A stretch of DNA of 64,000 nt from Takakia lepidozioides (GCA_030704615.1 CM060733.1:42470001-42534000), one strand, 5' to 3'; positions 5,377-52,289 are shown, numbered from the stretch's first letter. The notes: generated by a model from the letters alone, not told the origin. Numbers and translations: made by a program.

Positions 5377-8300
5377 TGTTGGTTTTTAATTTCCGAATGG
5401 TAAATCACAAAAAATCAAAAGTGATCACGGAAATCACTGCAGAGAAGCCGTCGTCAACACACACAAGGAATCTGATACTCAGAGTGCCTGCACATCTTCC
5501 AATGATATGAAAAACTCTGGTCTACATCTCCTAGTAGAAGTCTATCTTAACGCTATTTGGTTCACTTCACTCACCGCCAAGTGTAGCCAAAACACAACTT
5601 CAAGAATATTCACACCTAATCTCAATTCTCAATGGCACCTGATGCCCAGTGCACTACAACACACAACCGCGCCTTGGTGTTGAACCAATTGACCTGCCGA
5701 CTCCCCTGGAAACAAAATTATTCTGGAATATCCTGCAAACTTGTCACACCATCGTATCAGTGTAACACAAAGCTGATGAACTCATTGATTGGTTCATGAA
5801 AACATACTTGTCATTAATTTGTGTCCCTTTTTCACAGGTTCTTGAAGTTGGTCCGTGGTTGAATACAGAAGCAGTCTAACTTAGTAGTATACTTCTGTAG
5901 CGTGGAAAGGTGTGACAGCAACAAGAGAATATATAGAAATGTCACCAAACACAAAAAAATAGAGCCAGTATCCCAATGAACCTTCTCAATACTCCATGAG
6001 CCATCACAAAATTTGTCCCCGTCACTCCTTGATAGAACGTAAGAAATCACATAACACGCGGTCAAACAAATCCTCCGCTTCTACCTGTCCAATATAGCCA
6101 ATTAAACGATTATCTTGGCATTCAGATTGGAGTTTAGCTGGCTTCTTTGCAGGATAGGCAACTACCAAGCTGATGCAACCATCTTTGCATGCGGCAAGCA
6201 CCCTCGTTTTGGACTCGGAACTATTCTTGTACATCTGTTCCGGATCTGTAGTTGCCACTGCTCTAGCCCACTGCACCTCAGATCGCAGCTTCAGTTGACA
6301 GAAGACAGGAATCTTCAAATTCCCAAGTCTCACAACAAAAAGAACATCAGCTCCAGATCTGTCGTCAAAAATGAGGCATGGTGGACGAGATTTCTCTTCA
6401 GCATCAAGAAATTTACTTACGGTGTGGATCCTATATGACTCCCTCCACACTCCTTCACCTTCACCGGTAATCGTTGGCTTGTCCCTTGCGAATTTTGGAG
6501 GCAGGGTTGCATCCTTGAAACAGCACATATCGGCCAACAATTTTGTGCCGTCAAACAGCTTGGCCACATGAACTGTGAAAAGTTTCTCCCATGCCCTACC
6601 CATTGCACTGGGATCATCCTTGCAATTAACCATGTAGTCTTTGAGTGATTTCTCAAATGAATGGTTGTTTTTCAAGTAGTTCATGATGCTATGATGGACT
6701 GTCGGTTCGACTATAGAGAAAGTGAATTGGGAACCTGTTGAATGGTGTAGCTGTCCAAGGCCACACTCGAGCAAAGTCATATCTCCGTCCGTTGAAACGG
6801 TATGTTCTCCCCTCCCTGCATAGGCAAAGGAGGTTCCTATTCTTTGCACCAAGGAAGCACCATTGAATGATTCTTCTTTCAGGACAAATGTGCCTTTTGC
6901 TCCACACAGAGCGCTCACAGCATAATAAATGGAAGTGCTGTCATTGGTGTCGCTTGTGATCTCCTTGAAATAGTTGTCTACTACGGTTATATCCCATCTT
7001 CCTCCAGCCTTCCTCAGAAGGCGCTCGACACAACTTACCAAACACCTTCGACGGCCTCTGAACTTTTCCAGCAGATACTGGGCATTGTCCTCCATATGAT
7101 CATCCTCTAGCTTCAGGTACTCGCTGCAGAATTTCAGAACCTGACGCACATCTGTCCATGAAGAAAATGGAGCAGAAGAAAATTGAACCGGGCCACCACC
7201 CCCTTCTTTTGCAATCTGCGAACCTATGTCCGCTTCCAGCTTCAAAAAGCTGACACCTGTACCAGCAACAAATACTTTCTGCTTTGGCAACGATGTAGAT
7301 GGCCGCACTAGGGCTTTGATCAACGGAGAATAAATGGACCTTAGCTCTTTCATCTCGGGGGATTCGTAGTCATTTACATTTGTCCTTCCCAACACCTGCG
7401 CTTCATCCAGAACTACAGTGAAAGTGCCAACCTTCCCCTCTAAATCCGTCCACAGTTTTTTTATCCTAGCACTTAGCCCCTCTGAATCTTCCAGGGAAGT
7501 AACCACGTTAAAAAGTTTCCGAGTAAGCACATCATATAGATCGTTACGATCTGCACCAAGGAAAGCACGGAATTGCACCTGGAGCATGAGCCATTGCAGA
7601 GGACTCAAATCAGGAATTTCTTGGTGACAAAATTCCAAGATTAACAACCTTGAAAGAATGGCACACCTCATACGTTTCATCACATTCCTGTGATTCATTG
7701 CCTTATCGACCTCTATCTCGTGAGAACTCACAGAGGCGACATCATCTGACCCACCGTTTCCTTTGGTTTTAGCTGTCCAAAAAAAACCCCACTTCTCTGC
7801 AAGCAGCTCGTAAAGAAACCGAGTTTTCCCACTCCCACTCACTCCAACAACTGGCACAACACCAGTCGAGCCATCATTCGCTCGTTCCCACAAATCACCA
7901 ACATCTTCAGTCCAACGAGCAGTTAATTTATCCAGTAAAATGCTTGGATAACCACGGTGGTCGAGTGGCACACCGTTCTGTATAGACAAATTGCACCCCA
8001 TCTTTTTGAACGTGTCCAAAAACTCAGAAAATTTCAATTTCCATTCTTGCATAACCACCTTCACTGATTCTGTAAGCAAAACCCACACACTTTCTGTCAC
8101 TCCTGACAGATCCATGTATCTGAAGAAAAATAAGAGCATCCTATCTTGCAAATAATTGAACAATACAAAAGATACACCAACAAAGCCTATGACCAAAGAA
8201 AATGCAAAGAGAAGGGGAACATGGAAGGGAAGGCCAAGTAACAGAGTAGCTCTACCTGAAAACCCGTTTCCAGAGGTTTTCAATCTCTTCGCAGATCTCT

Positions 8301-9356
8301 CTCCCCCTGCAAATATGTCAGATTTTGTCAAATTTCAAAAGATCTGCATTCATCCAAACTCTTACCATGGAATTACTGATGAAACTGCTGTTGTATGGCA
8401 GCATCCTGTAACCCTAAACCAAATCTCTCTCCCACTGCATATATGTCAGACTCCACCCATCACAGAGTGTGTCCTGGCCTTGAAAGAGGCCCTCCCACAC
8501 TTTACACAGTCACTTCAAGATCTCTCCTCTTGCCCATGGTGACACAAGGAGGGAGGTAGAAGGTGCTGTAGATTCTTGGGAGAGCTTCGCCACTTCTGCT
8601 GCTAATAGAGTCATGGAAGGAAACTAATTACCTGTGGTAGAGCAGTAAATTGGTGGACCCATGAGGTCAAGCTCAAGATTGCTGAGAGGCAGGCGCTCTA
8701 TAAGGACTGCTGTAATATCAAAGATGAAAAAATGCTCTGGTCTAGATACTACCAACTGCGTAAAGAGGTCAATCAGCTTGTAAGGGATCAGAAGAGGCTT
8801 TACTGGGAGAAGTTGTACAGTGACATAAACTTAACCCACCATGGTCGTAATGACAAAAGATTATGGTTGGCCTTACAGCCAATCATCATAAGACCAACAA
8901 TTGCACAACCAATACATGTACCCTACCTCGATCTTGGCAAGAACCACAACAGTGATAGACAATGTATATAGACTGGGAAAACGTAACACACCGAAGAGAA
9001 AAGAAGACAAGAACGCAGAACACTTTAAACCTGCCCTCATCCGCCGCAATCTGACCCACCTTAAGAAAATAATAGTCCTTTAGGTCTGGAAACCTTCAAG
9101 TGCAAACCCTGTTACCTGCTGGGGGTGCTACAAAAGAATAAACCACAAGTATCAACCAACAAAACGACTTGGAATAAAAATAGAAGAGGGTGTAAGGACA
9201 GCAATCACTGTACTATTGATAACATACCAGCAGCTTCAGAGGGTTCAAAGCAAAAAACATAACGAGAAAAAAACAAACCATAAACGCTACCAAGAAGCTG
9301 CTTGTAATGCTGCAAATATCTCAAGATACTAGATTCAGTTTGAAATACCCTGTCCT
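5263..9356. repeat. Segmental duplication copy 1 (~4.1 kb, direct repeat of 23541-27688)
   Basis: Near-identical sequence from taggaacgggac to gaaataccctgtcct in both places, with small indels including an ~86-bp deletion at ~8420 in this copy. Confidence 0.95.
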
Positions 9357-9764
9357 GGCTGTCGCGCTTTGGATGAAATGCCTTCTTGAATCCTCTTCTG
9401 TTCCCAGTACCAGCCAAGAATCTACATAACCTAATAGATGTAGGTTATTTGTCAAATTGCAGACATTATCTTAAGAAATTTCTGCAAACAAGAACACACA
9501 CTAACCTTCTATTTGTGCAGCTGGCATTGCGTCCCCATCAACAAGCACCGCGAAGTCTTTCGATTGTCCTGCTGTTGATCCACATGAATCCCTTACCTCT
9601 TCAATGGTTACGCCCTCATAGGCTGCTAGCTCACAAAACAGAAGTGTTTCAGGACGCAGGTCAGTCCGCTTAGCAATTCTGGAAATATCGAGCGTCCCCT
9701 TGTCATCGGTAGCGGTTACCTCCCATGACCGCTTGGCTGTACGGAGCCAGATTTTTGGCTTCAT
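6022..9764 (-). CDS. Crinkler/CR-type effector-like gene 1: putative beta-grasp-like header exon (9764-9506) + basic linker exon (8306-8256) + P-loop NTPase/REase-fold exon (8102-6022)
   Basis: Walker A VVGVSGSGKT, Walker B VVLDEAQ, FVAGTG, RGRRR, and C-terminal E..GAD..QLK (PD-(D/E)xK variant). Predicted phase-1 junctions: GAAG|GTTAG, TGCAG|GGG, TCAG|GTAGAG, TGTCAG|GA. The exon structure is inferred. Confidence 0.8.
8580..8900 (+). repeat. LINE-derived intronic module (ORF2 EN-RT linker-like), also at ~26930-27220, ~28190-28470 and ~44340-44630
   Basis: Reads NWWTHEVKLKIAERQALYK..LWSRYYQLRKEVNQLVRDQKRLYWEKL..DKRLWLAL, the pattern of non-LTR ORF2 linkers. Four near-identical copies, all inside CR-gene introns. 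Confidence 0.7.
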
Positions 9765-10337
9765 CCTGATCTTTCACGACCATACACTTGCACTCGCAAG
9801 AATATGCCAAAACTAGATCTGAAACAAAGAGAGAAACTAACATTTAATAAACCTGCACTGCTAGTTGGCAAAGACATGCTCGCTCACATAAACAATCGCG
9901 ATCAATCATAACATAAAGCAAACAAGGAAAAACGCCTTTAACCTAGAAGCAAGAAAGACTTCACACGAAACCCTAGGTGAACAGAACTGAAGCGAAAGCG
10001 ACAAAGGAAGCAGTAAAAAGTTGTTCGCAAGCAACACTCACACAACACCTGCGAGGTTTTGATAAACGAAGTTGAATATGAACAATTGGAAAAAAGTACC
10101 TCCAATGCACACAACTAGCCAACTACCAGGCACATGATCGAGAGAAACATGATCGCGCGACGACGAAGGCAAGCCAAGTGCAAAAGGCGAAAGCATGAGA
10201 GTGCAAGACTCTTTGTTTGGTGCTGCTGCTTAGGGTTTCGGGAGCTTCTATGAGCCGTCGATGGGTTCAGATTGGAGGGTCGAGGGCCGTTGGATGGGAG
10301 TTCCCGTGTGGAATTTGCGATGATGATCTGCAACTGG

Positions 10338-10680: not shown

Positions 10681-11749
10681 AGTCAATTTTCAGAAGGATT
10701 TAATATGATGTGGCAATATAAACAATATAAACCAATGAGATTCTAAAATTCTAACCAGAAGAAATTAAAATATATTTCAAAATATAACGTTATTAAGCAA
10801 AAGTTTCAATCCCAAGAGTATGAAAGGAAAAATTTCGATAATTGAAAAACAGGGGGAGTGGAAAAAGGAGCGATGGCGGAGCTACGAGACAACCTCCAAT
10901 GGTCATCTGAAAACTTCTTCCATCTCTATCAGATCCTTTCGACTTCCAGCTTACTTTCAACTCGCAAATACTCCCAAGCTCAGCTTTCAAATGATATGCA
11001 CATTAGGAGTTTTTGTTTGGTTTTCTTTCAAAACTCTCTTCTTCAGTGTTCATCCTAACACCTTACTTCCTTTCATCTCCATCTCGGTTGCTTGCATCAT
11101 CCCTAATCCACCCACCACAGCCGTCTCTAGCTTTTAAGCCGTTTGCTTTCTACAGTGACATTTCCCGCCTATACCCCCTTCCTCTACATTTCCCGTCTCT
11201 CTTAAGCTCCATAACTCACACACCCAGCGGAGTCCTTAAAACACCTTCTGTTTTTCTACATTTGTTAACTATGGCTCCCGGAAGCAACCAGCTGCGTAAC
11301 AACGAGAAGATGGTGACTCGTGGGAATATCCGAGGGCAACAGAGTATTCACAGAAGACCCAACCTGTCGGTATGGGCTTTTTTATGGCACACCAAGCTCG
11401 ATCCAGGATAGCTTCTGCCAGTGGTTCAGTAAGATATCCCTCCCCTCCCATTCCCATCAACCCTCTCTCTCCTCCCCAACCACTTCTCAAAACACCCAGG
11501 CTAAACTCCTTCATTCCGAACATTCCGAACCCTCCAATTTTGGAGGAACCACCAGCAGATTGGGAGGAGGAGAGCGCTCTTAATCAAGATGATCTGGACA
11601 AGGACTACCCCATGATCAATATGAACATCCCAGAACGGCAAAGGAGAGTCACAACAATGGAGGAGACAGGTCACAACGCAAGACACATGGCTCCCCGGAA
11701 GACTACAATTTTGTGCCTTAACCCTACCCAACTCAACACGTCCGATTGG

Positions 11750-12975
11750 GCTGGTGAATATCTATGCACCTAATAATTATGCTGACAGAGCAGAATTCTG
11801 GATCACTCTCAACACCAAAATGAGGGAACAACCTTCAATAGACAGCTGGATAGTTTCTAGAGATTTTAATATGGTGGAGATGCAAGAGGATAGAAGAGGT
11901 GCGGGGTCATTTACCTCGAACCCAGAAGAAATGGACCAGTGGTTCAACTGCTCGCAAACACATAACCTCACGGAAACAGTGCCAATCTTTGGACAGTCAT
12001 CAAACATCACCTTTACATGGTCCAATAACCGTTCTCTTGCAGATCTAAGTATGGCTCGTCTTGATAGGGCTTATCTTTCCCTTGACCTAGTTCAATATGC
12101 AAAGAGAGCCCCACAAGAACCAATACCCTTAAGCTTCGACCATGCTCCAATTACTCTCTCCATAACCTTACCGGATTCTTACAGAAGGGGTAGAGGCCTT
12201 TACAAAATAAATAACCTCCTCCTTAAGCTGCCAAGCTTCAAGCAGGGCCTGCTGAGGGCTTGGACTCAGGCGGGAAGTGACCTCCTGGACCCTACGCATC
12301 TCTTTCTGGCCAAGTTGAAGGCTGTCAACATTGAAAGTCAGAGGATGAGTCAAGAACTAGCAAGTATCAGAAAGAGAAAGGTCATGGCCTTAAATAAATG
12401 TGTTAGTCAAGATTAGAATCTACTCGTTGTGATGAAGATACATACCGTACGTATGTGGATAGGCCAGAAACAACCTTGATATTCATCACAAAATCCAAGA
12501 GAGGAAGTGGAAACTGCAGGCGGGTGTCAACTGGTCTACAAAAGGAGAAAAAATGAATAAATATTTTTTCGACAAAACAAGATTGAGACATGCCTCTCAA
12601 ACAATATCAGAGCTCATTGACTAGCCATCAGGCACTTCAACTTCTACACCAAAGACCATGCCCAAGTTGGTTGGCAGGCATTTCCATAATTTTTTTCATA
12701 GCGACCTCGACTTCCTGCAACCAACAGAAGAACAAACATTCTGCTTGATCCACACCCCTACCCTAATGTCCCACCACGTCGCTTCCCAATTAGAAGGAGA
12801 TTTCACAGATATAGAACTGGGTGAGGCTTTATCCAAACTATAGAACAACAAATCTCCGGGCATAGATGGTATATCCATGGAATTTTATAAAGCATTGTGG
12901 CCGGAAATCTCAAGGGATTTCACTGCAATGGCAAACCACTTGTTTCAACAGGGACACATGCCCCCCAAATGATGG
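11750..12975 (+). mobile_element. L1/Tx1-type LINE fragment (AP endonuclease and start of RT, degenerate)
   Basis: NIYAPN..WIVSRDFN..FTWSN..ARLDRAY..DHAPI in ORF 11754..12416, and KSPGIDGISMEFYKALW at ~12850-12900. Contains stops and frameshifts. Confidence 0.9.
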
Positions 12976-21300: not shown

Positions 21301-21477
21301 GGATTTTAATATATTGTCAACAGTTGCTTTGAGACGTTGCAATCTCTTAAAATCCTTCTTGTATTGTATGAAAGAATTGTCCAGTAACTTTTGAGCAGCC
21401 TCCACAAAGGTAGGAGTGTGATCCCGTTTGTTGAAAAACATGCCCACTCGTGGTCTCGAAGAAGAACACTCCCGAAT

Positions 21478-23540: not shown

Positions 23541-26500
23541 TAGGAACGGGACACCACCCAGGAACCGGGGAGAAGAGTATGCCACACCCGTCAGTAGCAA
23601 GATTCGACCCCAGAATTGTCTCGGTCGCACTTACTGCACTTAGCCAACTGAGCTACCGACTGTTGGTTTTTAATTTCCGAATGGGAAATCACTGCAGAGA
23701 AGCCAACACAAGGAATCTGATACTCAGAGTGCCTGCACATCTTCCAATGACATGAAAAACTCTGGTCTACAACTCCTAGTAGAAGTCTATCTTAACGCTA
23801 TTTGGTTCACTTGACTCACCGCCAAGTGTAGCCAAAACAAAACTTCAAGAATATTCACACCTAATCTCGATTCTCAATGGCACCTGATGCACTACAACAC
23901 ACAACCACGCCTTGGTGTTGAACCAATTGACCTGCCGACTCCCCTGGAAACAAAATTATTCTGGAATATCCTGCAAACATGTCACACCATCGTATCATGC
24001 AGTGTAACACAAAGCTGATGAACTCATTGATTAGTTCATGAAAACATACTTGTCATTAATTTGTGTCCCTTTTTCACAGGTTCTTGAAGTTGGTCCATGG
24101 TTGAATACAGAAGCAGTCTAACTTAGTAGTATACTTCTATAGCGTGGAAAGGTGTGACAACAACAAGAGAATATAGAAATGTCACCAAACACAAAAAATA
24201 GAGCCAGTATCCCAATGAATCTCACCTTCTCAATACTCCATGAGCCATCACAAAATTTGTCCCCGTCACTCCTTGATAGAACGTAAGAAATCACATAACA
24301 CGCGGTCAAACAAATCCTCCGCTTCTACCTGTCCAATATAGCCAATTAAACGATTATCTTGGCATTCAGATTGGAGTTCAGCTGGCTTCTTTGCAGGATA
24401 GGCAACTACCAAGCTGATGCAACCATCTTTGCATGCGGCAAGCACCCTCGTTTTGGACTCGGAACTATTCTTGTACATCTGTTCCGGATCTGTAGTTGCC
24501 ACTGCTCTAGCCCACTGCACCTCAGATCGCAGCTTCAGTTGACAGAAGACAGGAATCTTCAAATTCCCAAGTCTCACAACAAAAAGAACATCAGCTCCAG
24601 ATCTGTCGTCAAAAATGAGGCATGGCGGACGAGATTTCTCTTCAGCATCAAGAAATTTACTTACGGTGTGGATCCTATATGACTCCCTCCACACTCCTTC
24701 ATCTTCACCGGTAATCGTTGGCTTGTCCCTTGCGAATTTTGGAGGCAGGGTTGCATCCTTGAAACAGCACATATCGGCCAACAATTTTGTGCCGTCAAAC
24801 AGCTTGGCCACATGAACTGTGAAAAGTTTCTCCCATGCCCTACCCATTGCACTGGGATCATCCTTGCAATCAACCATGTAGTCTTTAAGTGATTTCTCAA
24901 ATGAATGGTTGATCGTCAAGTAGTTCATGATGCTATGATGGACTGTCGGTTCGACTATAGAGAAAGTGAATTGGGAACCTATTGAATGGTGTAGCTGTCC
25001 AAGGCCACACTCGAGCAAAGTCATATCTCCGTCCGTTGAAACGGTATGTTCTCCCCTCCCTGCATAGGCAAAGGAGGTTCCTATTCTTTGCACCAAGGAA
25101 GCACCATTGAATGATTCTTCTTTCAGGACAAATGTGCCTTTTGCTCCACACAGAGCGCTCACAGCATAATAAATGGAAGTGCTGTCATTGGTGTCGCTTG
25201 TGATCTCCTTGAAATAGTTGTCTACTACGGTTATATCCCATCTTCCTCCAGCCTTCCTCAGAAGGCGCTCGACACAACTTACCAAACACCTTCGACGGCC
25301 TCTGAACTTTTCCAGCAGATACTGGGCATTGTCCTCCATATGATCATCCTCTAGCTTCAGGTACTCGCTGCAGAATTTCAGAACCTGACGCACATCTGTC
25401 CATGAAGAAAATGGAGCAGAAGAAAATTGAACCGGGCCACCACCCCCTTCTTTTGCAATCTGCGAACCTATGTCCGCTTCCAGCTTCAAAAAGCTGACAC
25501 CTGTACCAGCAACAAATACTTTCTGCTTTGGCAACGATGTAGATGGCCGCACTAGGGCTTTGATCAACGGAGAATAAATGGACCTTAGCTCTTTCGTCTC
25601 GGGGGATTCGTAGTCATTTACATTTGTCCTTCCCAACACCTGCGCTTCATCCAGAACTACAGTGAAAGTGCCAACCTTCCCCTCTAAATCCGTCCACAGT
25701 TTTTTTATCCTAGCATTTAGCCCCTCTGAATCTTCCAGGGAAGTAACCACGTTAAAAAGTTTCCGAGTAAGCACATCATATAGATCGTTACGATCTGCAC
25801 CAAGGAAAGCACGGAATTGCACCTGGAGCATGAGCCATTGCAGAGGACTCAAATCAGGAATTTCTTGGTGACAAAATTCCAAGATTAACAACCTTGAAAG
25901 AATGGCACACCTCATACGTTTCATCACATTCCTGTGATTCATTGCCTTATCGACCTCTATCTCGTGAGAACTCACAGAGGCGACATCATCTGACCCACCG
26001 TTTCCTTTGGTTTTAGCTGTCCAAAAAAAACCCCACTTCTCTGCAAGCAGCTCGTAAAGAAACCGAGTTTTCCCACTCCCACTCACTCCAACAACTGGCA
26101 CAACACCAGTCGAGCCATCATTCGCTCGTTCCCACAAATCACCAACATCTTCAGTCCAACGAGCAGTTAATTTATCCAGTAAAATGCTTGGATAACCACG
26201 GTGGTCGAGTGGCACACCGTTCTGTATAGACAAATTGCACCCCATCTTTTTGAACGTGTCCAAAAACTCAGAAAATTTCAATTTCCATTTTTGCATAACC
26301 ACCTTCACTGATTCTGTAAGCAAAACCCACACACTTTCCGTCACTCCTGACAGATCCATGTATCTGAAGAAAAATAAGAGCATCCTATCTTGCAAATAGT
26401 TGAACAATACAAAAGATACACCAACAAAGCCTATGACCAAAGAAAATGCAAAGAGAAGGGGAACATGGAAGGGAAGGCCAAGTAACAGAGTAGCTCTACC

Positions 26501-27688
26501 TGAAAACCCGTTTCCAGAGGTTTTCAATCTCTTCGCAGATCTCTCTCCCCCTGCAAATATGTCAGATTTTGTCAAATTTCAAACGATCTGCATTCATCCA
26601 AACTCTTACCATGGAATTACTGATGAAACTGCTGTTGTATGGCAGCATCCTGTAACCCTAAACCCTAAACCGAGGACAAACTAAATTATCTGAGCACACA
26701 CCGATCTCTATCAGTCATGGAATGTTCAGAAGTTTTCAATCTCTTCCCAAATCTCTCTCCCACTGCATATATGTCAGACTCCACCCATCAGTATGTCCTG
26801 GCCTTGAAAGAGGCCCTCCCACACTTTACACAGTCACTTCAAGATCTCTCCTCTTGCCCATGGTGATACAAGGAGGGAGGTAGAAGGTGCTGTAGATTCT
26901 TGGGAGAGCTTCGCCACTTCTGCTGCTGATAGAGTCATGGAAGGAAACTAATTATCTGTGGTAGAGCAGTAAATTGGTGGACCCATGAGGTCAAGCTCAA
27001 GATTGCTGAGAGGCAGGCGCTCTATAAGGACTGCTGTAATATCAAAGATGAAAAAATGCTCTGGTCTAGATACTACCAACTGCGTAAAGAGGTCAATCAG
27101 CTTGTAAGGGATCAGAAGAGGCTTCACTGGGAGAAGTTGTACAGTGACATAAACTTAACCCACCATAGTCGTAATGACAAAAGATTATGGTTGGCCTTAC
27201 AGCCAATCATCATAAGACCAACAATTGCACAACCAATACACGTACCCTACCTGGATCTTGGCAAGAACCACAACAGTGATAGACAATGTATATAGACTGG
27301 GAAAACGTAACACACCGAAGAGAAAAGAAGACAAGAACGCAGAACACTTTAAACCTGCCCTCATCTGCCGCAATCTGACCGACCTTAAGAAAATAATAGT
27401 CCTTTAGGTCTGGAAACCTTCAAGTGCAAACCCTGTTACCTGCTGGGGGTGCTACAAAAGAATAAACCACAAGTATCAACCAACAAAACGACTTGGAATA
27501 AAAATAGAAGAGGGTGTAAGGACAGCAATCACTGTACTATTGATAACATACCAGCAGCTTCAGAGGGTTCAAAGCAAAAAACATAACGAAAAAAAAACAA
27601 ACCATAAACGCTACCAAGAAGCTGCTTGTAATGCTAAAAATATGCAAATATCTCAAGATACTAGATTCAGTTTGAAATACCCTGTCCT
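23541..27688. repeat. Segmental duplication copy 2 (includes SINE head 23541-23660)
   Basis: Direct repeat of 5263-9356. Confidence 0.95.
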
Positions 27689-29737
27689 AACAAACAACCG
27701 TGTCTTTCAAAGGACCCCCCTCATATTTTACTTGTTAACATGGATCTATCGAATGAATAAACTGCATGTGTCAACCGTACACAGGATCACACACGGGATT
27801 GGGAGAAGCTGTTGAAACCCTGAGTGCACAACGCAGCCAAGAAACCAAAAAAATTGCAAACACTTGACTCCAAGCTACGCATTGAACGAATCATTGAACA
27901 AATCAGCAACTGCAGCGGGTTTAACAATCAACTGCCCAATTGTCTTGCAAGAATTCAAATGTGCCTGCCCATCATCAGAATTGCAGACATAAAAACAAAC
28001 GGGCTCAGACTGCCCTAGGCAACCCATCGACATTCACCAGACTCTCTCCATGACGCACTATCTGACACCCTGGTTTCCATAACCAACAATCCCACACAGA
28101 AAGTAGGCTGCGAAGACAGACACAACACCGTTCAACCAAGAAGCAAGAGACGTAACAAAAATCAGATGAAGATTTGAAACCCTAACCCGAGTCATGGAAG
28201 GAAACTAATTATCTGTGGTAGAGCAGTAAATTGGTGGACCCATGAGATCAAGCTCAAGATTGCTGAGAGGCAGGCGCTCTATAAGGACTGCTGTAATATC
28301 AGCAGATCTGGTCTAGATACTACCAACTGCGTAAAGAGGTCAATCAGCTTGTAAGGGATCAGAAGAGGCTTTACTGGGAGAAGTTGTACGGTGACATAAA
28401 CTTAACCCACCATGGTGATATTGACAAAAGATTCTGGTTGGCCTTACAGCCAATCATCATAACACCAACAATTGCACAACCAATACATGTACCCTACCTG
28501 GATCTTGGCAAGAACCACAACAGTGATAGACAATGTATATAGACTGGGAAAACGTAACACACCGAAGAGAAAAGAAGACAAGAACACAGAACACTTTAAA
28601 CCTGCCCTCATCCGCCACAATCTGACCGACCTTAAGAAAAGAATAGTCCTTTAAGTCTGGAAAACTTGGACATTCAAAGAGCTAGCAAAACACATTTTAG
28701 CACGAAACCCTAACAGCTCCGGAAGAATCTCGCCTACACGGTCCTAAAGCATACCTGCATGAGTATGTGGGCTCGTAGAACAACAGGTCATAATCAAGCA
28801 AATATTCTGAAGTCAAGGTGCCAAGAATCTACATAACCTGGGCCCACGGTAAGGTGAGGCTAACATGCAGCAATGAACTATAGTGCTGCGGTGCACACTT
28901 GCGACGGCAATAGAATTATTGATTTGCATTGTCATCGGGGGTCTAGAGGGCAAGTATGAAAATAAAGTAACCCCACCTTCAAAGGGAGATCGTTAACTGC
29001 ACGGCACTACCCTAACACTAGCCATAGCTAAGAAACAAACTAATCATGAAGAATTGTCCCTTTTCTTTCCACTATTGTTCTATTGTTGTTCTATCTTGAA
29101 TCTGAGCAGATTCCATCCTATAGAATAAATAGATTATTTGCAAACCCTAAGCACTTGACCTTCTGTTCATTGACTGCTTGCACTACTCGAACTCAAGACA
29201 GAAAAACAAAGAAAAGCAACAAAAGCAAGAGAGACCGTATAGAAAAGCATGAGGGTCAATCACAGACCATACTGAAATGCAGAGATTCCTTACAATCCAA
29301 TCCAATCTTGAATCTGAGTCCTTTAAGGCTGTCACTGTTGTGGTTCTTGCGTCGCAGGGGGGTCGGCACGTCCGGCTCACCCGGGGTCCCGGCGTCACTA
29401 ACCCCCCCTAAACGTAGTAGTGAAAGTTTTCAAAGCTTGAAACACTTGCAAACCCCGAAATAATACAAAATTACAATTCAAGTTCAAGGTAAGGTGAAGT
29501 TGCACCTGCGGAAGAGGAAGCTGCTGTCACACGACACAAGCCCTTGTAGAGAGCCCGGTGGTAATTAGTCCAACGGGCGGGAAGATCAAGCTCGCTCAGA
29601 CCTCTTCGTACTGTGTCAGTCAAAGGTGCCTCTAGAACTGTCTCCGGCACTCCCTCGGACTTGAGAAATAGTAATGTTAGGTCTAACTGCTCTTTGTCAC
29701 TGAAGGTTTTCTTCAAATACACATGCAGGGTCTCCAT
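24266..29737 (-). CDS. Crinkler/CR-type effector-like gene 2: helical (possibly SAM-like) header exon (29737-29506) + linker exon (26550-26500) + NTPase/REase exon (26346-24266)
   Basis: The effector exon differs from gene 1 at 9 residues. Header METLHVYLKKTF..AASSSA ends in phase-1 GCAG|GTGCAA and shows no similarity to the gene-1 header. The exon structure is inferred. Confidence 0.75.
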
Positions 29738-32230: not shown

Positions 32231-33321
32231 CTAGATTTGTAACATAGCACGAACTAGATAGGAACGCAAATTCCATGCCCTCTTCCAACATACCATAGGT
32301 CTGTCAAATGACGCTAACTGCGGATCTTTCAAAAAGCCCACATGAAATTTAGGGTTTAGGACTCCCTCAAAGCTTAGAGCTTGAGTATAACGCAAATGCT
32401 CAAGTTTCAGAATCAAGGGGGCCCGCTTGCTCGTCAACTTACGAGTGGACTCCGAAGTCAACAGTGTAGCACGTTGTGTATAGTCACAAAGCATAAAACA
32501 CTCCAAGATAAAACACTCCAAGATAGCCTCGAGCACGAAGTCGCTCATAGAACAGTTGCCGGATCTCAGAAAAACTTGCCCGTGTGCTCTCCCTCAAAGT
32601 GTAACGTCGTAATTCGCCAATGATGAATGCTCGTTTTTGGTGTCGTGGATGACACGAGGTCCATGGCAAATACTGGTATCTGTTGAGTGCTTTTTGATAA
32701 CATCTCGAAAATAAAATCCCATGGTTGACAAAATCAACTCCCTTGAAGAACTGAATATCAAGAATGTCAACCGTAGACTCAAAGATTACCCTTTGATTCC
32801 AAATTGTGGGACTAAGAGAGTTGTGTCCATCGAGCCAAGCCTCCAAACTTGCCCGAGATCTTGCCCAAATTCCAAATCCATCATCGTTGTAGTATAGAGG
32901 CCACATACCTCCTCCAGCACCAGCCAACTCTCTTTCTAAGCTGCAAAGAAAGAGACAAGCATAAACAACAGCAAAGTTGCTACCCATTGTTGTGCCTCGG
33001 ATCTGATGCCAATAGCTTGAGCCAAATTGAAGATAGTTATTCTCCAACATCATGCGAGAAAGACTCACGACGAATCTTTCAAACCGAGGCGACTTAAACT
33101 TGTCGGCAATCATCTCCTTCAATCGTCGAAGCCCGTCCCCAGTAGGAATGCTAGGATACAATGACTCCACATCAAAGGTGAACAAAAGCACGTCGCCAGG
33201 AAGTTGCCTATCCGACAGATCTTTCAACAAAGATATAGAATCTATCAAATGGTTATCTTCCTCAAGCAGAATGGGAAACAGATGGTGATGCAACCACTTG
33301 GATGCGTGCTCAAAAACATAA
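32231..33321 (-). mobile_element. Endonuclease-less PLE RT, 5'-truncated copy
   Basis: YVFEHASKWL..FTFDVESLYPSI..QIRGTTMGSNF..YNDDGFGIW (small deletion at YIDD)..RLRARGY. Ends RSYLVRAMLQI*. Confidence 0.92.
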
Positions 33322-33953
33322 GCGGAGTGAGGGGTGCACATTGTATCTCTTTTCCTTCTCTTTCCCACTGATGAGCTCACGCGCTGAGCGAAACTAGTTT
33401 GGGGATTATAGAGATTCGTTTTGCTGCATCTTGTGTTCTTGTCTCTTTGTCTCATTGGCGTTGTTGTTGTTGTTAAGTTTTAGATTTGATCTTCTGCATA
33501 GTTCATTGCATTCATTTGCTTTGTGTTTATTGTAGTGCATGTTTTAAACTCTTTTTCGAATGTTGCATGTTAGATCTCCTTCTAAGACTGATCTTTAGTG
33601 TGTCTATTCTCTTACTTAGAGATAGGTTACTATTCTCCTGTCCTTACAGTGAATTAGTTTCATCACACACACTTGCTTCTTGCATATCTTTGCATTTGCA
33701 CTTTAGAACGTTGCAACATCACTCCCACTCTGTTCTATTCTAGTTTTCTGTGTCTCATGATCGATTCTTTTAGTTTTGATTCACAGGCTAGATATTTCTA
33801 CAAGTTTTCTAAGGTGTCCATAACTGGCCCCCCCTAAAAACTTGTTTGCACTTTGCTCCTAATGCACCCGGTGCATTCGCGGTTCGAACTCTTTTGCACT
33901 GCTACATGTATTTGTTTCCACTCTTTTGTAAACCCTAAACCCTAAACCCTAAA
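33322..33953 (+). mobile_element. Inverted PLE pseudo-LTR with hammerhead and (CCCTAAA)3 tail
   Basis: Reverse complement of ~31361-31968. Ends ccactcttttgt-aaaccctaaaccctaaaccctaaa. Confidence 0.9.
33363..33405 (+). ncRNA. Minimal hammerhead ribozyme
   Basis: TCCCA-CTGATGA-GCTCA(CGCGC)TGAGC-GAAA-CTA-GTT^-TGGGGA. Confidence 0.9.
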
Positions 33954-33954
33954 T

Positions 33955-35070
33955 GTACCTCCTCCAGCACTAGCCAACTCTCTTTCTAAGCTGCAAAGAA
34001 AGAGACAAGTATAAACAACAGCAAAGTTGCTACCCATTGCCGTGCCTCGGATCTGATGTCAATAGCTTGAGCCAAATTGAAGATAGTTATTCTCCAACAC
34101 CATGCGAGAAACACTCACGACGAATCTTTCAAACCGAGGTGACTTAAACTTGCCGGCAATCATCTCCTTCAATCGTCGAAGCCCGTCCCCAGTAGGAATG
34201 CTAGGATACAATGACTCCACATCAAAGGTAAACAAAAGCACGTCGCCAGGAAGTTGCCTATCCGACAGATCTTTCGACAAAGATATAGAATCTATCATAT
34301 GGTTATCTTCCTCAAGTAGAATGGGAAACAGATGGTGATGCAACCACTTGGATGCGTGCTTAAAAACATATCCGTTGTATGAACAAATCGGCCTCCCCAC
34401 CACCACAGGCTTGTACATTTTGAGCACGAGATAAAACATGCAGGGTCGGTAGCCCCCTTGGGGCTTGAACGCCAAAAAGTCCCTTGTCTGCCTGTCAATC
34501 AAACCAAATAAGAGAGCGGAAGCGAGCAATGCATCCAAACCATATGTGAGATTGTCAAATGGGATCTCTGCCACGGATTTGTAAACTTGTCCATCGTGGA
34601 GTTGGCGGTCTGTCTCATCCACATACCAGTCCTTCCGCATGATCACCAACCCAAGATTTTTGTCTACTAGCTTGATGACGATGGACTCATCTCTGCTCAG
34701 ACAGCGTATCGCAGTCTTGAGGTGACCTCGAATAGAAGATCTGTAGGCAGAGCGAGCCACCTCCCTTAACCGAGTCTCTACAATGTTGCGACCCTCGATG
34801 ATAATGCTTTCCAAAGTAGGAAGTCGCACACACTGATCCCAAGAAGGTTGATGAACTCTGAAAGGAAGAATGGATCTATCTCTAGCATCCCTGAAGTGAT
34901 ATCGAAGACGTAAAGATCGAGCCAAAGAGTCATAAGCATCAAGAATAGAAGAGGGAGAAGGAGGAGTAGGATGTGGAATAAAACTCAAACCTAGGCCTAA
35001 AAGCTTCTTTTCAAAACAAGAGAGTGGACGATTGGCCATGTTGTGGATGGCCACGTTGGTTAACCTGTTC
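33955..35070 (-). mobile_element. Endonuclease-less PLE RT, 3'-truncated copy (N-terminus to just before YIDD)
   Basis: ORF 34059..35054 reads IHNMANRPLS..LLGLGLSFIP..DKNLG..GRPICS..FDVESLYPSI. Segment 33955-34371 duplicates 32905-33321. Confidence 0.92.
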
Positions 35071-35209
35071 TCTACCTAAGAGACTCTCTTGCAAGAAAAA
35101 GATAAAGCTTATAGCCCTCTACATCCCTCAACGGCCACCAGAAGAGCTTGCGAGCTCCCTTCGGCTTGGATCTGCCCATGTGACCCTAAACCCTTAAAAC
35201 GTGCATAAC

Positions 35210-35243
<34 letters not shown>

Positions 35244-38988: not shown

Positions 38989-39107
38989 ACCCCCCTAAAG
39001 TGCGCTGTTGTCACCCCTAAGGCTCCTGTTGGTCTCAGTCTGTGCAAAAATTAAGGGTACCCCACATATCCCGTAAAAGTGTCTAAGTCCCAGACAGTCC
39101 TCTAACA

Positions 39108-40775: not shown

Positions 40776-42408
40776 ACTTGACTCCACCTCGATAATCTCG
40801 AGCTTAAATTTGCAGCTGCATGACCAGACAGGAAAAATTATGTACTTCTTGTAGCACATGCACCTCAATCTTCTGGTCCTTACTGCAAAATCTAAGCCTA
40901 TGCTAGATCTCAACTGTAATTTACACTTATGCGGATTATCAATCCATCTCAACACAAAACAGTCCCTGCAATAACAATGAAAGCATGAGTGTGCCCTCTC
41001 CTCAAGAGACATAAGCTCGTAGTATTTGCATATCATAGAAGAAGTCATCACAAACAGATCAGTGTGCTATGAATGAGTGGCTTCGGTGCTTGCACCTCAA
41101 TTTAAAATAACAACTTGAAGGCACGTTATTGATGGGCTGTTGTAATCGCAGCTAATTTTCTGCAACTGAAAATGGCTGCACATGGTGGCTGACATGCTGA
41201 TTACCATCTACATGCTCAAAAGCCGATGATGGTGCTCTTTACCTATAGAATAACCAATCAGTGTTCTTCTATGTTATATCTCATAACTCACCATTGCGGC
41301 GTTGCGGCCCCTTAACGAGAGCCGTCGCTTTCCAATTCGTAACTTCAGGGGAACAAGGAAAGGCATAATGGATGCTCTATTTTGAGGGTATGTCTTTATG
41401 GAATCTAACTACTATGGAGGTGCATTAACACTATGAAGAGTAGGATGTCATAACAAATAACCATTTAACACTCTTGACATGGTAGTGTATTTTTTTATAG
41501 AGTATCAAAACCATAACATTTAACAGAAGGAGGCCTTATAATGCGCTATGTTGATCGGGGGAGCTGGGCTGCAATCCCCTGAGATTCTACATAAAACTGT
41601 TAACAGCTCAAAACATGCGCACAATTTCGGCGAGAGCTTTATATCCTCTAAAGATGGTACTCAAGAAATCGTAAAGGTTTGAACAACACTACTGATTCGC
41701 AGGTCACATGCATCAAAGTACTGAAGAGAGAACAAAAACTCATTCTTCACATTGGTAGCAAACCCTACAAACTTACACTCACCAGACTCCCTCCTTGACG
41801 CACTATCTGACACCCTAAACCATCAACCATGGTTTCCATAACCAACAATCCCACAAAGAAAGTAGGATGCGAAGACAAACACAACACTGTTCAACCAAGA
41901 AGCAAGAGACGTAACAAAAATCAGATGAAGATTTGAAACCCGACATGGACCCTAAACCCTAAACCCTAAACTTTATTATACATCCAAGTACTTGGGGTTC
42001 ATACATCCATTGAGACTACGAGGAGATAGATGACGTCCACCGAATCACAGGGATGAAAATTGAATGGATGTGTCCCTACGGATGATAAAGTGAGTTCGTT
42101 CCTAACGAAGCCTGTGCAGCGAGTATAATCCTTTCCCACTTTTTTCATCCTCTCTTTGCGCTCTTCATTTCTTCCTAGTCCGCTTGTGAGAAAGGGTCCA
42201 TTGCGTGTTACACTGGAGCTCCGAGGAGGATTTTGAGAATGTCTCTAAATCAGTCTGCTGTTTGCTGTGAATGTAGCCACAGAGGACACAACAAAGAACC
42301 AAAAAGACCACCCAGAAGGTTTGAGTCTAAACAAGACTTCAGCTCCCTAATAAACCGCCAAGAACACCTCAGCTTCCCGAAGTTCTGCATCTTTTACTAG
42401 ACTACATA

Positions 42409-45400
42409 TCATGTATCAAGCAACTCCAGACACTCTGCTGCAGTTGGCCTTTGGTCTGGCACCTGATGCTTGCATTTCTCCATCAAACCCAAAAGCTTCG
42501 CATCCAGAATAATATTTGAAGTAGACAAAAGGTACCCAATGCCCCAGATGTCAACCATGGTATCATGAGGCCCAACTGTCATCTCTGGAGCATGTGAATT
42601 GGAATCTAGACGGTGGAGCTTGAAGCACTGATCGGTCTTTATTGCCTCATCAAGATCCACTAGTACCCATTTCTCAGCATTATTCCTGTCGCGAAGAACA
42701 TTTTCCCACCTGATGTCTCTGTGCGCGAGTCCTTTTCTGTGCAACCACTGCAGTGCTTCACACAAACATCGGAGACAGGTCATCAGTTCGTCATGGTTCT
42801 TTGGTTTTGTAACCACAGCCCTCTGCACCACAATAGTTCGGTCTGAATCCCTTCTATGCAAAAAAAGTTCCACATTTGGACAAGATGTCGTCGCCTCATA
42901 GATGGCTACAACTTCCCTGTAGAAAGCCTCATTTGGATAGGACTTCTCTACCTTCCTCCCACATGGACGAATAACTTTTCCACTGTTCCTCCGTATGAGA
43001 GGCATATCCGACACTTCATCCTTTCCTTCGCAAACCTCTTCCATTGTTTTCAGCAACTTCGCCATAGTTATGCAGGCCAGTACAAGCTTAAGTCGTTCCT
43101 TTGCATTTGATATATTGAATTGAATGAGATCACGGCACATGTTCATGGATCCTCCATGTGGATCCACAACCACATATAGCACACAGAATGTCACTAGGGC
43201 TGCCCTCGCATAGTACGCCATGAGAAAGGGGAGATGTTTATACGTCCAGTCCAATTTCGAAATCAATTCCTTTCTTGGATCACCAGCAGTTGTAGGGCCT
43301 TTCTCTTCCCCTCTCCACAAAGCATAGAACCGGAAACCAAACCTAACGACCTTGTCGGGCCTTGTTCCACTATTACTCCCTTCACCAGACTTGTTTCGCT
43401 CTGCCAGCCAAGGGCCATCAAAGAAAAACTTAAGTGATTCATCAATAACAGTGTCCCAAAGGTAGTGAAAAGAATCTTCTGTATCAGCAGTGGGTGCAGG
43501 CATTGGAGGGTCCACAATAGCATTCACAAGTGGAACAATCTTATAACACTCTTCATCAGGTCCAGCTAGTTTGAACAACTTGTCCCTGTTCGTCGGCAAA
43601 GAGTTCCACATATTCAAAGAAACGGGAAATCGTAAGCCATCCTTCAATTCCATTTCCAACAATCCCCGCAGCTCATCCACTTCACAAAGTTGCACACGCT
43701 GCTCAACTATGTCCTTCCGAATGGATAAAGTATTGTCAACTCTGGGGGTACCTGACGAAGGAATGGGTTAGAAGACAAGCTGCTCATTGGCATTTGAGAA
43801 CTAATATTATCATTTCCTCTTCAAAAGGAGCAAATGATCTGGTGATGACATACTCGAAGTACGTGAACCTCACTATCAGCAAACTCAGGCCGCAGAGCCC
43901 TGAGAAACTCAGACCACCACAAGGATCAGGTGCTTGTAAAAACAAAACAAGATTTCAACATAGTGGAACATGCACTGAAATGACAAAATAAAATGTCCAA
44001 GGTGCTGGATTGGACATCAACATGCGACAGTTGCATCACGTGATGCACTAGCTTGACACCTTGATGGGTGAACACAGCGAAGAAACTTACACCACACCTA
44101 GTTGCCAAGAGAGCGCAACCCTGAGTGCACATCCAGAATTCCACATCTAAATAACAAGCAACCGTGTCTGCCAAGGACTCACCCAGGAACAAGAATTGCT
44201 AACACTTTCTAGTCCACTTTTTACCCTCCCACACTTTACACAGTCACTTCAAGATCTCTCCTCTTGCCCATGGTGATACAAGGAGGGAGGTAGAAGGTGC
44301 TGTAGATTCTTGGGAGAGCGTTGCCACTTCTGCTGCTGATAGAGTCATGGAAGGAAACTAATTATCTGTGGTAGAGCAGTAAATTGGTGGACCCATGAGA
44401 TCAAGCTCAAGATTGCTGAGAGGCAGGCGCTCTATAAGGACTGCTGTAATATCAAAGATGAAAAAAATGCTCTGGTCTAGATACTACCAACTGCGTAAAG
44501 AGGTCAATCAGCTTGTAAGGGATCAGAAGAGGCTTTACTGGGAGAAGTTGTACGGTGACATAAACTTAACCCACCATGGTCATATTGACAAAAGATTCTG
44601 GTTGGCCTTACAGCCAATCATCATAACACCAACAATTGCACAACCAATACATGTACCCTACCTGGATCTTGGCAAGAACCACAACAGTGACAGCCAATGT
44701 ATATAGACTGGGAAAACGTAACACACCGAAGAGAAAAGAAGACAAGAACGCAGAACACTTTAAACCTGCCCTCATCTGCCGCAATCTGACCGACCTTAAG
44801 AAAATAATAGTCCTCTAAGTCTGGAAAACTTGGACATTCAAAGAGCTAGCAAAACACATTTTAGCACGAAACCCTAACAGCTCCGGAAGAATCTCGCCTA
44901 CACGGTCCTAAAGCATACCTGCATGAGTATGTGGGCTCGTAGAACAACAGGTCATAGTCAAGCAAAGATTCTGAAGTCAAGGTGCCAAGAATCTACATAA
45001 CCTGGGCCCACGGTAAGGTGTGGCTAACATGCAGTAATGAACTATAGTGCTGCGGTGCACACTTGCGACGGCAATAGAATTATTGATTTGCATTGTCATT
45101 GGGTGTCTAGATCAGGGCAAGTATGAAAATAAAGTTACCCCACCTTCAAAGGCGTTAACCGCACGTCACTTCCCTAACACTAGCCAAAGCTAAGAAACAA
45201 ACTAATCATGAAGAATCGTCCCTTTTCTTTCCACTATTGTTCTATTGTTGTTCTATCTTGAATCTGAGCAGATTCCATCCTATGGAATAAATAAATTATT
45301 TGCAAACCCTAAGCACTTGACCTTCTGTCCTTCCACTGCTTACACTACTCGAACTCAAGACAGAAAAACAAAGAAAAGCAACAAAAGCAAGAGAGAAGGT

Positions 45401-48400
45401 ATAGAAAAGCATGATCAATCACAGACCATACTGAAATGCAGAGATTCCTTACAATCCAATCCAATCTTGAATCTGAGAAGATTCCATCCTACGAAATAAA
45501 TAAATTATTTGCAAACCTTAAGCACCTTTCATTGACTGCTTAAACTACTCGAACTTATGACAGAAAAACAAAGAAAAACAACAAAAGCAGGAAGAAAAGC
45601 AAAACCCTGCTACCTGCTGTAGGTGCTACAAAAGCTTGAGAAGTATCCCCACAACAGCCAACCCATGTTGTTGCGTTGCATCTATCATGTAGTGCACAAC
45701 CAGAATTCCACATATAAATAACAAACAACCGTGTCTTTCAAAGGACCCCCCTCATATTTTACTTGTTAACATGGATCTATCGAATGAATAAACTGCATGT
45801 GTCAACCGTACACAGGATCACACACGGGATTGGGAGAAGCTGTTGAAACCCTGAGTGCACAACGCAGCCAAGAAACCAAAAAAATTGCAAACACTTGACT
45901 CCAAGCTACGCATTGAACGAATCATTGAACAAATCAGCAACTGCAGCAGGTTCAACAATCAACTGCCCAATTGTCTTGCGAGAATTCAAATGTGCCTGCC
46001 CATCATCAGAATTGCAGACATAAAATCAAACGGGCTCAGACTGCCCTAGGCAACCCATCGACATTCACCAGACTCTCTCCATGACGCACTATCTGACACC
46101 CTAGCTAATGGGTGAACTCTGTCACAGAAGGTTCTGCAGCCAAGGCGGTTTTGGTTAACTCACATAAGTCACCAACAACCACATTCTGTCATCGACCAAT
46201 TAACAGCTCAAAACATGCGCACAAATTCGGCTAGAGCTTTCTATCTTCTGAAGATGGTACTCAAGAAATCGTAAAGGTTTGAACAACACTACTGATTCGC
46301 AGGTCACATGCATCAAAGTACTGAAGAGAGAACAGAAACTCATTCTTCACACATTGGTAGCAAACCCTACAAACTTACACTCACCAGACTCCCTCCTTGA
46401 CGCACTATCTGACACCCTAAACATCAACCATGGTTTCCATAACCAACAATCCCACAAAGAAAGTAGCCTGCGAAGACAGACACAACACCGTTCAACCAAG
46501 AAGCAAGAGACGTAACAAAAATCGGATGAAGATTTGAAACCCTAACCCTGTACATACTCTTGGGATGCCATTGAGCCCGTCCAAAACTGTTGCGGTTATG
46601 GTTATGGATGCAAAAAATCCAAGAGAGCTCCAGAGACACAAAGGAAGACTCCCTCTCCCTCACAATAAAAATAGAAGTGGATGCGAGGACGGCAATCACT
46701 CACAAGTGAACTACCAAAATGACGGTTTAGAGTTAGGGGTTCAGGCCACACAACACTTTAAACCTGCCATCATCTGCCGCAATCTGACCGACCACTGCGC
46801 TTCAAGAGATTCAGAAGGGCTTGCCCTCTGACCTTGCCCGAAAAGTGCCCACAAAGGTTCACGGCCAGACATTTCCAAGAAGCAGTGCAATGCAGCAAGC
46901 TCAACAAAATGGCAACTCAAAACCATAGAACATGATCCGGCAACTTTTTCTTCAGCCATTCTCTGAGGGTAGGAGGCGGTGCCCGCAGCAATCTATCAAC
47001 CAACAAAATGACTAGGAATATAAATTGGACGCTGCCATACGCTGGCTCTTATCAGACTGCTCGACAGCTCTATGAGCAGCCTGATTAGCATCGTTCTAGA
47101 AAATACATTCTAGAGAATTACCCTGGGTGATGCCTACCTGCAGGATATTGCAGGGAAAGGAAACAAAGAGAACTCATTCATTCATCAGGAGTAACTACAG
47201 ATAACCAGATAAGGAAAAACTTAAGTAATCTGCTGTAGAGCCATATAAATAACAAACAACCGTGTCTTTCAAAGGACCCTCCTCATATATTACTTGTTAA
47301 CATGGATCTATCGAATGAATAAACTGCGTGTATCAACCGTACACAGGATCACACACGGGATTGGGAGAAGCTGTTGAAACCCTGAGTGCACAACGCAGCC
47401 AAGAAACCAAAAAAATTGCAAACACTTGACTCCAAGCTATGCATTGAACAAATCAGCAACTGCAGCGGTTTCAACAATCAACTGCCCAATTGTCTTGCAA
47501 GAATTCAAATGTGCCTGCCCATCACCAGAATTGCAGACATAAAAACAAACGGGCTCAGTCTGCCCTAGGCAACCCATCGACATTCACCAGACTCTCTCCA
47601 TGACACACTATCTGACACCCTAGCTAATGGGTGAACACTGTCACAGAAGGTTCTGCACCTGACGAAGGAATGCGTTAGAAGACAAGCTGCTCATTGGCAT
47701 TTGAGATCATAATCAACCAAGGATTCTGAAGTCATACCTAATATTATCATTTCCTCTTCAAAAGGAGCAAATGATCCGGTGACGACAAACTCTAAACCCT
47801 AACCCTGACCAGGTTAGGACATCTTTTCTTCTCACAAGATCTGAGACTAAAACCCTGTTTGCAGTGATGTTGTGTGCTGAGTTTTATGAGCTGGTTAAAA
47901 AATTAAAGAAGGACATTATGCGATTGAAATGACTCTATATCTACCTCACACCAATATGCTACTTGTTGATCAATCTCTGATTGCTCCAAAAGAATTGGAG
48001 GCCCAAATTAAGACCATGTGATTCACTCTGCTTGAAATATCCAGTCTAATCCTGCTCTACTGGCACATGTCAGAGCGAGTTTCCTCCTACAATCCCATCA
48101 ATGTTCTCCTTTTTCTTAGAGACCTCCTCTTTCTTAGTTATCTCTGCCCTTCTCTTGTCGCTTCCTTCTCACAAGGGGGTTGCTAATAGAAGTGATAGTG
48201 ATCGTTTGTGGACTTTTGAATTTTAAGAATTACTGATACTTGTAGCGTGAAATAAACAAACCCTAGCTATCAAAAGTATCAAGAAAAGATCCCAGCATCA
48301 GCAGCGGTATTCGAAGAAAAAAATTGAACGAAAAAACAGTCTTCATGCTAAGAAAACCCTAAAACGTCATAACCTCCGAATTAGACCAAACGCACCTGTG

Positions 48401-48630
48401 GTGGCTTCAGATTGGGCGAATGTCTTGAGGAGAACGGCCACTTTACCAGGTCGTCCAGGAAGAGTGCTCATCAAGGATTCCCTATCGCCTGCTTTAAGAT
48501 CAGTTTCTGATTCAAATCCCGCATCCACCAATCTCTTGATGTCGGTATCACTGAACTTCGAACCTAGACATTTCGCCTGCAAGAGTTGGCGGAGGTCTCC
48601 GTAGGCGTCAACCACCTCCATGTCCTCCAT
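42409..48630 (-). CDS. Crinkler/CR-type effector-like gene 3: SAM-like header exon (48630-48396) + REase-fold/protein kinase exon (43751-42409)
   Basis: TEDSFHYLWD..RPD..RGEEK (PD-(D/E)xK), then HRDIRWEN, VDLD, HAPE and DIWGIG (CRN8-like kinase). Phase-1 ACAG|GTGCG donor and in-frame phase-1 CGTCAG|GT acceptor. Confidence 0.8.
44225..47806. repeat. Mosaic intron built from modules shared with the other CR genes
   Basis: 44225-44815 ~ 8490-9080; 44816-45478 ~ 28654-29320; 45720-46100 and 47250-47620 ~ 27689-28070; 46200-46545 ~ 41598-41940; 47658-47790 ~ 43751-43850. Confidence 0.9.
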
Positions 48631-52205: not shown

Positions 52206-52289
52206 TTCGGATTTCCCTCTAGCAGTTGAGAATTCCCTGAAAAACGCAAGGTTTAGTGTCTTTTTTGACCAAAAACCAAGCGGCCACGC

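Follow-up and report, generated by a model that had tools for sequence, protein, structure and literature searches.

The window analysed here, i.e. a stretch of 64,000 nucleotides from the moss Takakia lepidozioides (GCA_030704615.1 CM060733.1:42470001-42534000), harbours three genes, all on the minus strand and lying amid retroelement debris. As assembled, a short header exon opens each of them, followed at a distance by one or more exons for a large enzyme, i.e. an NTPase-REase in genes 1 and 2 and an REase-kinase in gene 3. Judged by these enzymes the cluster consists of bryophyte CR (Crinkler/RHS-type) genes; its headers are not of the oomycete CRN type. The products are predicted, from their sequences, to be nuclear nucleases. 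A preliminary description of this DNA had recognised Crinkler-like effectors, and for both the NTPase-REase and the REase-kinase the CR domain assignment is borne out by homologues, by motifs and, for the latter, by a Pkinase domain. Among named proteins, the closest relatives of the two effectors come from Ceratodon and Physcomitrium, and those of the third header also from Sphagnum.

For the exon structure we relied on contigs from two studies, X5 and X6, which derive from other individuals than the source of the window and consist of contigs only. Both are taken as RNA because they skip four GT-AG introns that the DNA runs X1 and X7 keep. In gene 1, a 51 nt linker exon (8256..8306, phase 1-1) matches the linker of the Ceratodon protein P0002, which is composed of header, linker and NTPase-REase, and contains a basic stretch that we take to be NLS-like. 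The linker is followed by a 186 nt intron (8070..8255), which is in frame and stop-free and whose joint 8069/8256 was found in both X5 and X6, by the NTPase-REase exon E1 (6022..8069, 681 codons) with Walker A, Walker B and D..QxK motifs, and by a 3'UTR intron (5733..5981), the joint of which was also present in both studies. Therefore, the earlier placement of the effector exon at 8306 needs amending, since the NTPase-REase starts only at 8069, behind the linker and its intron, while the phase 1 assigned to the junction holds at both acceptors; the start of the enzyme exon at 8069 in phase 1 is the same as in Ceratodon P0002. A hydrophobic stretch after the linker was discarded as a membrane helix, as it is intron. 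Read onwards from the acceptors 8306, 26550 and 43751, the DNA is open in phase 1 only (760, 760 and 446 codons, respectively), as had been proposed. E1/E2 aligned with the Glomus protein P0008, a carrier of PF20147, at 27 % identity over 91 % (E 9e-51).

The effector of gene 3 is a CRN8-like REase-kinase encoded by a single exon (42409..43751, 446 codons), with a Pkinase match at E 1e-11 (above the cut-off) and both PD..ExK and HRD motifs. It shows 37 % identity over 98 % to the Physcomitrium protein P0013, named 'crinkler effector protein 8' (E 1e-67), and among its relatives the N-termini differ between Ceratodon and Physcomitrium.

Gene 2 shares its NTPase-REase with gene 1. A duplicated unit comprising intron modules, linker, E1 and 3' flank (copy 1, 5263..9356) recurs as copy 2 (23541..27688, minus strand), in which homology places the linker at 26550-26500, the intron at 26499-26314 and the second enzyme exon, E2, at 26313-24266. 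As initially noted, the two NTPase stretches are about 99 % identical (14 of 2285 nt differ) and lie behind unrelated headers. Since the unit includes introns, it was copied at the DNA level. Its 3' end is marked by a tRNA-like, SINE-like short repeat (5170..5385, minus strand; boxes recognised by eye), which is complete at this position but truncated, at 23541, in copy 2, and the bin of which had a very high depth in X1; ARAGORN found no tRNA in the repeat. At the ends of the unit as delimited, the true ones possibly lying elsewhere, the longest TSD or TIR matches were 4-5 nt, i.e. background. E1 and E2 differ at 12 of 2048 nt without any indel, the 3' flanks at 17 of 759 nt with eight indels (Fisher p 0.0004), while the excess in the 3' flank over the non-coding DNA on the 5' side reached only p 0.06. 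Exon copies closer to each other than their 3' flanks are the pattern that a recent exchange would leave. The differences amount to nine non-synonymous and two synonymous codons, i.e. a pN/pS of about 1.3; no selection is apparent from these 11 codons, and the reading frame is intact in E1, in E2 and in the kinase exon.

The three header exons run from an ATG start to a phase-1 donor, i.e. H1 (9506..9764, 86 codons), H2 (29506..29737, 77 codons) and H3 (48396..48630, 78 codons), in agreement with the three header ORFs ending at a phase-1 AG|GT described previously at 9764, 29737 and 48630. All three are covered by contigs in X5 and X6. Upstream of H1 and H3, 5'UTR introns are spliced out in both studies (9819..10041 and 48718..48882, respectively), the former having no such joint in X1 and X7, of which X7 lacks cover over H1. 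The headers had also been called unrelated to each other, and indeed H2 and H3 gave no alignment and each of the three is single-copy in the window. However, stretches of this kind are common by chance, since 37 minus-strand donors end ATG...AG|GT stretches of 70-95 codons, 8 of the 37 in phase 1, so that the header pattern alone is weak proof and evidence from outside is needed.

Such evidence differs among the headers. H1 and H2 matched none of the 51 proteins compared and nothing in Pfam, PDB sequence searches with them gave nothing useful, and fold searches with both returned no match at Z >= 5. The structure model of H1 had a pLDDT of 54, with a best fold match at Z 3.9, while the best of the H2 models reached a pLDDT of 77 (the other four, 42-51), from which H2 is predicted to be a five-helix domain. 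A SAM domain was considered for H2 and not confirmed, and a SAM-like nature of H3 was obtained as an Atlas lead only, with a score under 0.9. The PF20147 header (LxLFLAK / HVLVxxP) had no match at E 0.5 in H1, H2, H3 or P0002. Two metagenome scans found nothing, and an Rfam search returned one weak match (E 0.18).

H3, in contrast to H1 and H2, belongs to a bryophyte header family. It aligned with the N-terminus of Ceratodon P0002 at 37 % identity over 68 aa (E 3e-11), and a search of the full library returned 19 matches, 15 of which were kept, while P0059, P0060, P0066 and P0070 were dropped as long repeat proteins; when H3 was compared with longer proteins, none of 54 candidates qualified. 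In 9 of the 15 relatives, seen as proteins only, a Gly followed by M, T, K or R stands three or four residues past the end of the domain, which is what reading on through a G|GT donor in phase 1 would give. The view that header and effector are joined across a phase-1 intron is thus supported beyond the window, the junction looks conserved in the H3 family, and on these protein sequences it appears to be old. Gene callers lose these headers: a good number of the database entries related to H3 are fragments consisting of no more than a header and its read-through. Both P0052 (72 % identical to H3) and the Sphagnum protein P0063 continue with a basic linker and then with tails unlike either effector of the window, so that across bryophytes the H3 family sits on three unrelated tails. 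P0052 is moreover a close paralogue of H3 with the same C-terminal end.

Between headers and effectors lie two introns (8307..9505 and 26551..29505) and a longer interval (43752..48395), all on the minus strand, of which 88 %, 92 % and 55 %, respectively, consist of shared modules, confirming that the high-identity intron modules also occur in the kinase gene. Module M is present in four copies (8608..9096, 26932-27420, 28189-28667 and 44342-44831), 2-4 % apart, and contains an antisense ORF piece, which we presume to be LINE-like by its look and which had no match in Pfam. Module S occurs three times (27688..28071; 45719-46102, 1.0 % apart; 47250-47621, 2.4 % apart), and a 1.1-kb block (28189..29318) is common to 44342-45477 at a distance of 2.8 %. 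Since one copy of module S leads into the NTPase path and another into the kinase path, this module is a candidate switch point between the two, as far as the sequence suggests. Within the window the shared modules had no match outside these three genes. An AGGGT lies at most 12 nt from 10 of 29 module ends, compared with a background of 8.4 %, these ends not being independent of each other. A candidate micro-exon of 12 nt (phase 1-1; minus strand, 9116..9127, 27440-27451 and 45614-45625) recurs in the three intervals and was not seen spliced, and the third interval additionally harbours, at 47795-47657, a relic of the kinase acceptor.

Contig depths are of limited use here and do not give copy number. 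Both X1 and X7 contain the organism, as long near-identical contigs show. In X1 the depth of the unit was about 1120-1240, compared with 131 for H1, and in X7 it was 12-13, compared with about 2 for the kinase bins and 3.5 for the H3 contig; hence the 4.1-kb effector unit looks multi-copy. The module contigs had depths of 2003 (X1) and 12-18 (X7), i.e. around one to two times that of the unit, while the bins of neighbouring repeats reached 200-1500 in X7. By this measure the intron modules look low-copy, far below the neighbouring repeats, and do not look like generic dispersed transposons, which had been named as an outcome speaking against the proposed exon shuffling.

The header-effector pairs of the assembly are another matter. 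The preliminary description had expected the joins 9506>8306, 29506>26550 and 48396>43751, none of which was seen. Of the first and the third, which each lay within a single stretch compared, the former was absent from the 15 joints listed at the H1 gene and the latter from those listed at the H3 gene (15 of 20), and none of the contigs listed spans a header-effector interval. Instead, an X6 contig continues from the H3 donor for 22 letters that match exactly only the start of the linker (at 8284 and 26528), and in the same study the linker acceptor also takes U4, an exon for which the window has no match at up to five mismatches. In X5, U4 is joined to the acceptor 44120 in the third interval, where a stop follows after seven codons, so that this join is non-productive. 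The kinase acceptor takes U5, another exon from outside the window, in both X5 and X6. The upstream partners of the NTPase linker are therefore H1 and H2 by assembly and H3 and U4 by X6 contigs, and those of the kinase are H3 by assembly and U5 by contigs of both studies. With one linker receiving two further upstream exons in RNA and the H3 family carrying several tails, the many-to-many pairing of headers and effectors that had been suggested holds up, and all three header donors and the acceptors 8306, 8069, 26550 and 43751 are compatible in phase, i.e. all phase 1. The non-productive 44120 and a frame-shifting acceptor at 7977, also in use in X5, indicate that splicing at these genes is noisy. 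Among the contig loose ends, of which the best 24 of 163 and 18 of 107 were considered, an H1 contig of X5 runs 4 nt past the donor and then for 25 letters, and an H2 contig of X6 runs 2 nt past it and then for 24 letters; neither fits the start of the linker, so that the two headers may lead somewhere else altogether than into E1 and E2. In X5, the contigs of H2 and H3 stop one base past the donor, which fits a fork there, although only as a hint.

Taken together, we favour, with somewhat better than even confidence, a reading in which headers and effectors are re-paired by duplication of DNA and by ectopic recombination or conversion in the low-copy modules of phase-1 introns. A CR gene would accordingly be built of a short header exon and an enzyme exon, split by a conserved phase-1 intron; each of two unrelated headers has a copy of the recently duplicated 4.1-kb unit behind it, and ectopic recombination or conversion within the intron modules would swap the header-effector pairs. 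Because all junctions are in phase 1, a crossover anywhere in the intron would keep the frame, so that new pairs could arise without a coding hotspot. A crossover at module S, for instance, would place H3 on the NTPase, which is the pairing found in X6 and in Ceratodon. That the modules act as crossover sites is what we infer, the adjacencies of the window giving no mapped crossover, and the label of a 'diversity generator' is likewise one that we infer. The process would be evolutionary shuffling rather than a programmed somatic switch, and a function of the products in conflict or defence is predicted by analogy with the CR family. The joins in RNA differ from the pairings of the assembly, a difference that other copies may explain, i.e. 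these joins would stem from copies or haplotypes with other arrangements.

The same joins could be read as mixing at the RNA level, with headers spliced to whatever phase-1 acceptor is on offer, either in cis over long distances or in trans, which we consider quite unlikely. Clustered variable exons are known from the protocadherin, UGT1A and mod(mdg4) genes of animals. Both copies of the linker stand downstream of H3 and on its strand, X6 shows H3 joined to a linker, U4 reaches two different acceptors, and the kinase, although low-copy-looking in X7, receives an exon from elsewhere in each of two studies. Yet other copies explain these joins more simply, given that the unit looks multi-copy and that H3 has in P0052 a close paralogue ending in the same way at its C-terminus, and in X6 sequence of the gene-3 type precedes module S on a contig that departs from the window at 45719. 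On the RNA-level view H3 would pass over the kinase and join 26550 at a distance of 21.8 kb; for plants it would be unusual to bypass an entire gene that has a 3' end of its own. Were any header spliced to any effector, in cis over tens of kb or in trans, on top of the swapping of DNA, each individual would hold a combinatorial header-by-nuclease repertoire; we regard such an array, akin to a protocadherin or mod(mdg4) cluster but for polymorphic toxins, as rather improbable. If mixing did occur at the RNA level, it would amount to a new kind of plant gene array.

It is also conceivable, albeit unlikely, that the NTPase-REase unit is a promoterless cassette that amplifies selfishly or neutrally, lands behind any first exon and traps it through its acceptor. 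The alternatives to the favoured reading do not exclude one another. The near-identity and apparent multiplicity of the unit, its neutral-looking differences, its 3' end inside a SINE-like repeat, the relic acceptors in the introns and the non-productive joins would all fit, as would the linkage of CR domains to transposons mentioned in the accessible part of PMC5289972 and the spread of a CRN-like gene with transposons in fish, as given in the part seen of PMC12957317. On the other hand, TSDs and TIRs are not above background, all three enzyme exons have kept their frames, and in the H3 family the header is old and dedicated and its donor conserved. H1 and H2 would then be bystander exons, and most pairings non-adaptive, which is similarly unlikely: our searches returned no relatives for these two headers, but phase 1 is shared by all three headers, as compared with 8 of the 37 chance candidates. 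A third explanation holds that adjacencies of the window are in part assembly misjoins through the 0.4-1.1 kb repeats of a multi-copy family, the true pairings being other ones and fixed. The RNA of two studies contradicts the H3-kinase pair, H3-NTPase matches Ceratodon, and the header-effector intervals are bridged by none of the contigs listed. We nevertheless hold this to be very unlikely, as long reads, if the assembly was made from these, normally span repeats of this order (about 1 kb), and as the many-to-many joins in RNA contigs and in other species are independent of the assembly of the window.

The re-pairing of heads and tails by DNA exchange that we favour is not without precedent. 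CR genes in plants and the recombination of CRN genes are already known. According to the available part of PMC5289972, which relays Zhang et al. 2016, NTPase-REase and REase-kinase are the two commonest architectures of CR proteins behind their headers, the headers are alpha-helical and the family is found in land plants; the two architectures and the occurrence in a land plant are shared by the present genes, and alpha-helical headers may be as well. The moss genes differ in having a phase-1 intron and a linker exon at the junction, in headers that lack PF20147 and in the many-to-many joins of their transcripts. In the literature searched, to which Zhang et al. 2016 itself did not belong, there was no report of an intron junction or of exon shuffling in plant CR genes, and the portions seen of PMC6131194 and PMC5364385 hold nothing on the header/effector junction. 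A conserved phase-1 intron would offer land-plant CR genes a simple frame-preserving route for the exchange of heads and tails, a route testable in Physcomitrium and Ceratodon, both of which have relatives.

Similar exchanges are described elsewhere, again as far as the accessible text of each source goes. Grass NLR-IDs of the MIC1 clade swap terminal domains via intron fusion, with DNA-level copying or ectopic recombination (PMC5819176); there, a receptor presents a variable bait, whereas the moss varies both header and enzyme. The ROCO genes of brown algae, also candidate immune genes of a photosynthetic lineage, combine exon shuffling with alternative splicing, but shuffle repeat exons within a gene and not unrelated heads and tails between genes (PMC11378527). 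AACRNL is likewise a CRN-like gene amplified in a free-living eukaryote, but encodes an ADP-ribosyltransferase in animals and is carried by flanking DNA transposons (PMC12957317), while the moss unit shows neither TIR nor TSD. In oomycetes, duplication and recombination re-pair the N- and C-terminal parts of CRNs as well (PMC5289972; PMC3726527), but at a coding HVLVxxP hotspot where the moss has an intron, and the oomycete CRNs are secreted pathogen effectors. In Phytophthora cinnamomi, seven of ten validated CRNs are without an intron (PMC11064341). In our alignments, the HVLV motif of the Glomus protein P0008 comes to lie beside the moss header/linker junction.

Copies of the linker acceptors of the NTPase-REase genes (8306 and 26550) and of the kinase acceptor (43751) recur as relics within the introns between header and effector exons, i.e. 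at 8420-8450, 26727-26778 and 47657-47795, which suggests that nested copying took place repeatedly. In all three header-effector intervals (8307-9505, 26551-29505 and 43752-48395), the transcribed strand carries the motif TAGGGT at a density of 1.7-2.7 per kb and the opposite strand has not one occurrence; in two control regions the density is 0.1-0.6. An additional copy of one of the repeat modules found in these introns lies downstream of the kinase stop (41600-41941) and is 96 % identical to 46200-46542.

In the DNA run X1, a contig with a depth of 55 links 8378 and 9413 via 16 letters of other sequence, possibly representing a short version of intron 1 without modules. The header exon H1 itself (9506-9764) is present as two variants in contigs of X1 and of X6, a run taken as RNA. 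It is followed by an exon-like piece (9430-9357), the initial 18-20 nt of which are found again at 28837 and 45001; this piece may be either an exon joined to the donors of H1 and the second header, H2, or an old donor site.

The bryophyte sequence P0052, a close relative of the third header, H3, carries a different, P-loop-like tail that presumably resembles oomycete CRN C-termini, with no match in a Pfam search, and is likely to represent a third effector class for H3-type headers. Head to head with H3 lies a PPR-repeat fragment (PF13041; 49207-49758, forward strand).

The window also harbours broken reverse-transcriptase ORFs (114-1594, 21388-23036 and 32231-35075), which we take to be Penelope-like by their motifs and which had no match in a Pfam search; telomere-like TTTAGGG runs are found close to their ends, e.g. 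at 33929-33953. Also present are a weak match to a LINE endonuclease (11625-12416, forward strand), an integrase fragment (3028-3441, reverse strand) and a presumed DNA-methyltransferase fragment (62994-63449, forward strand). Long-unit tandem arrays that are partly palindromic occupy 51337-52212, 52288-53240 and 57472-58214.
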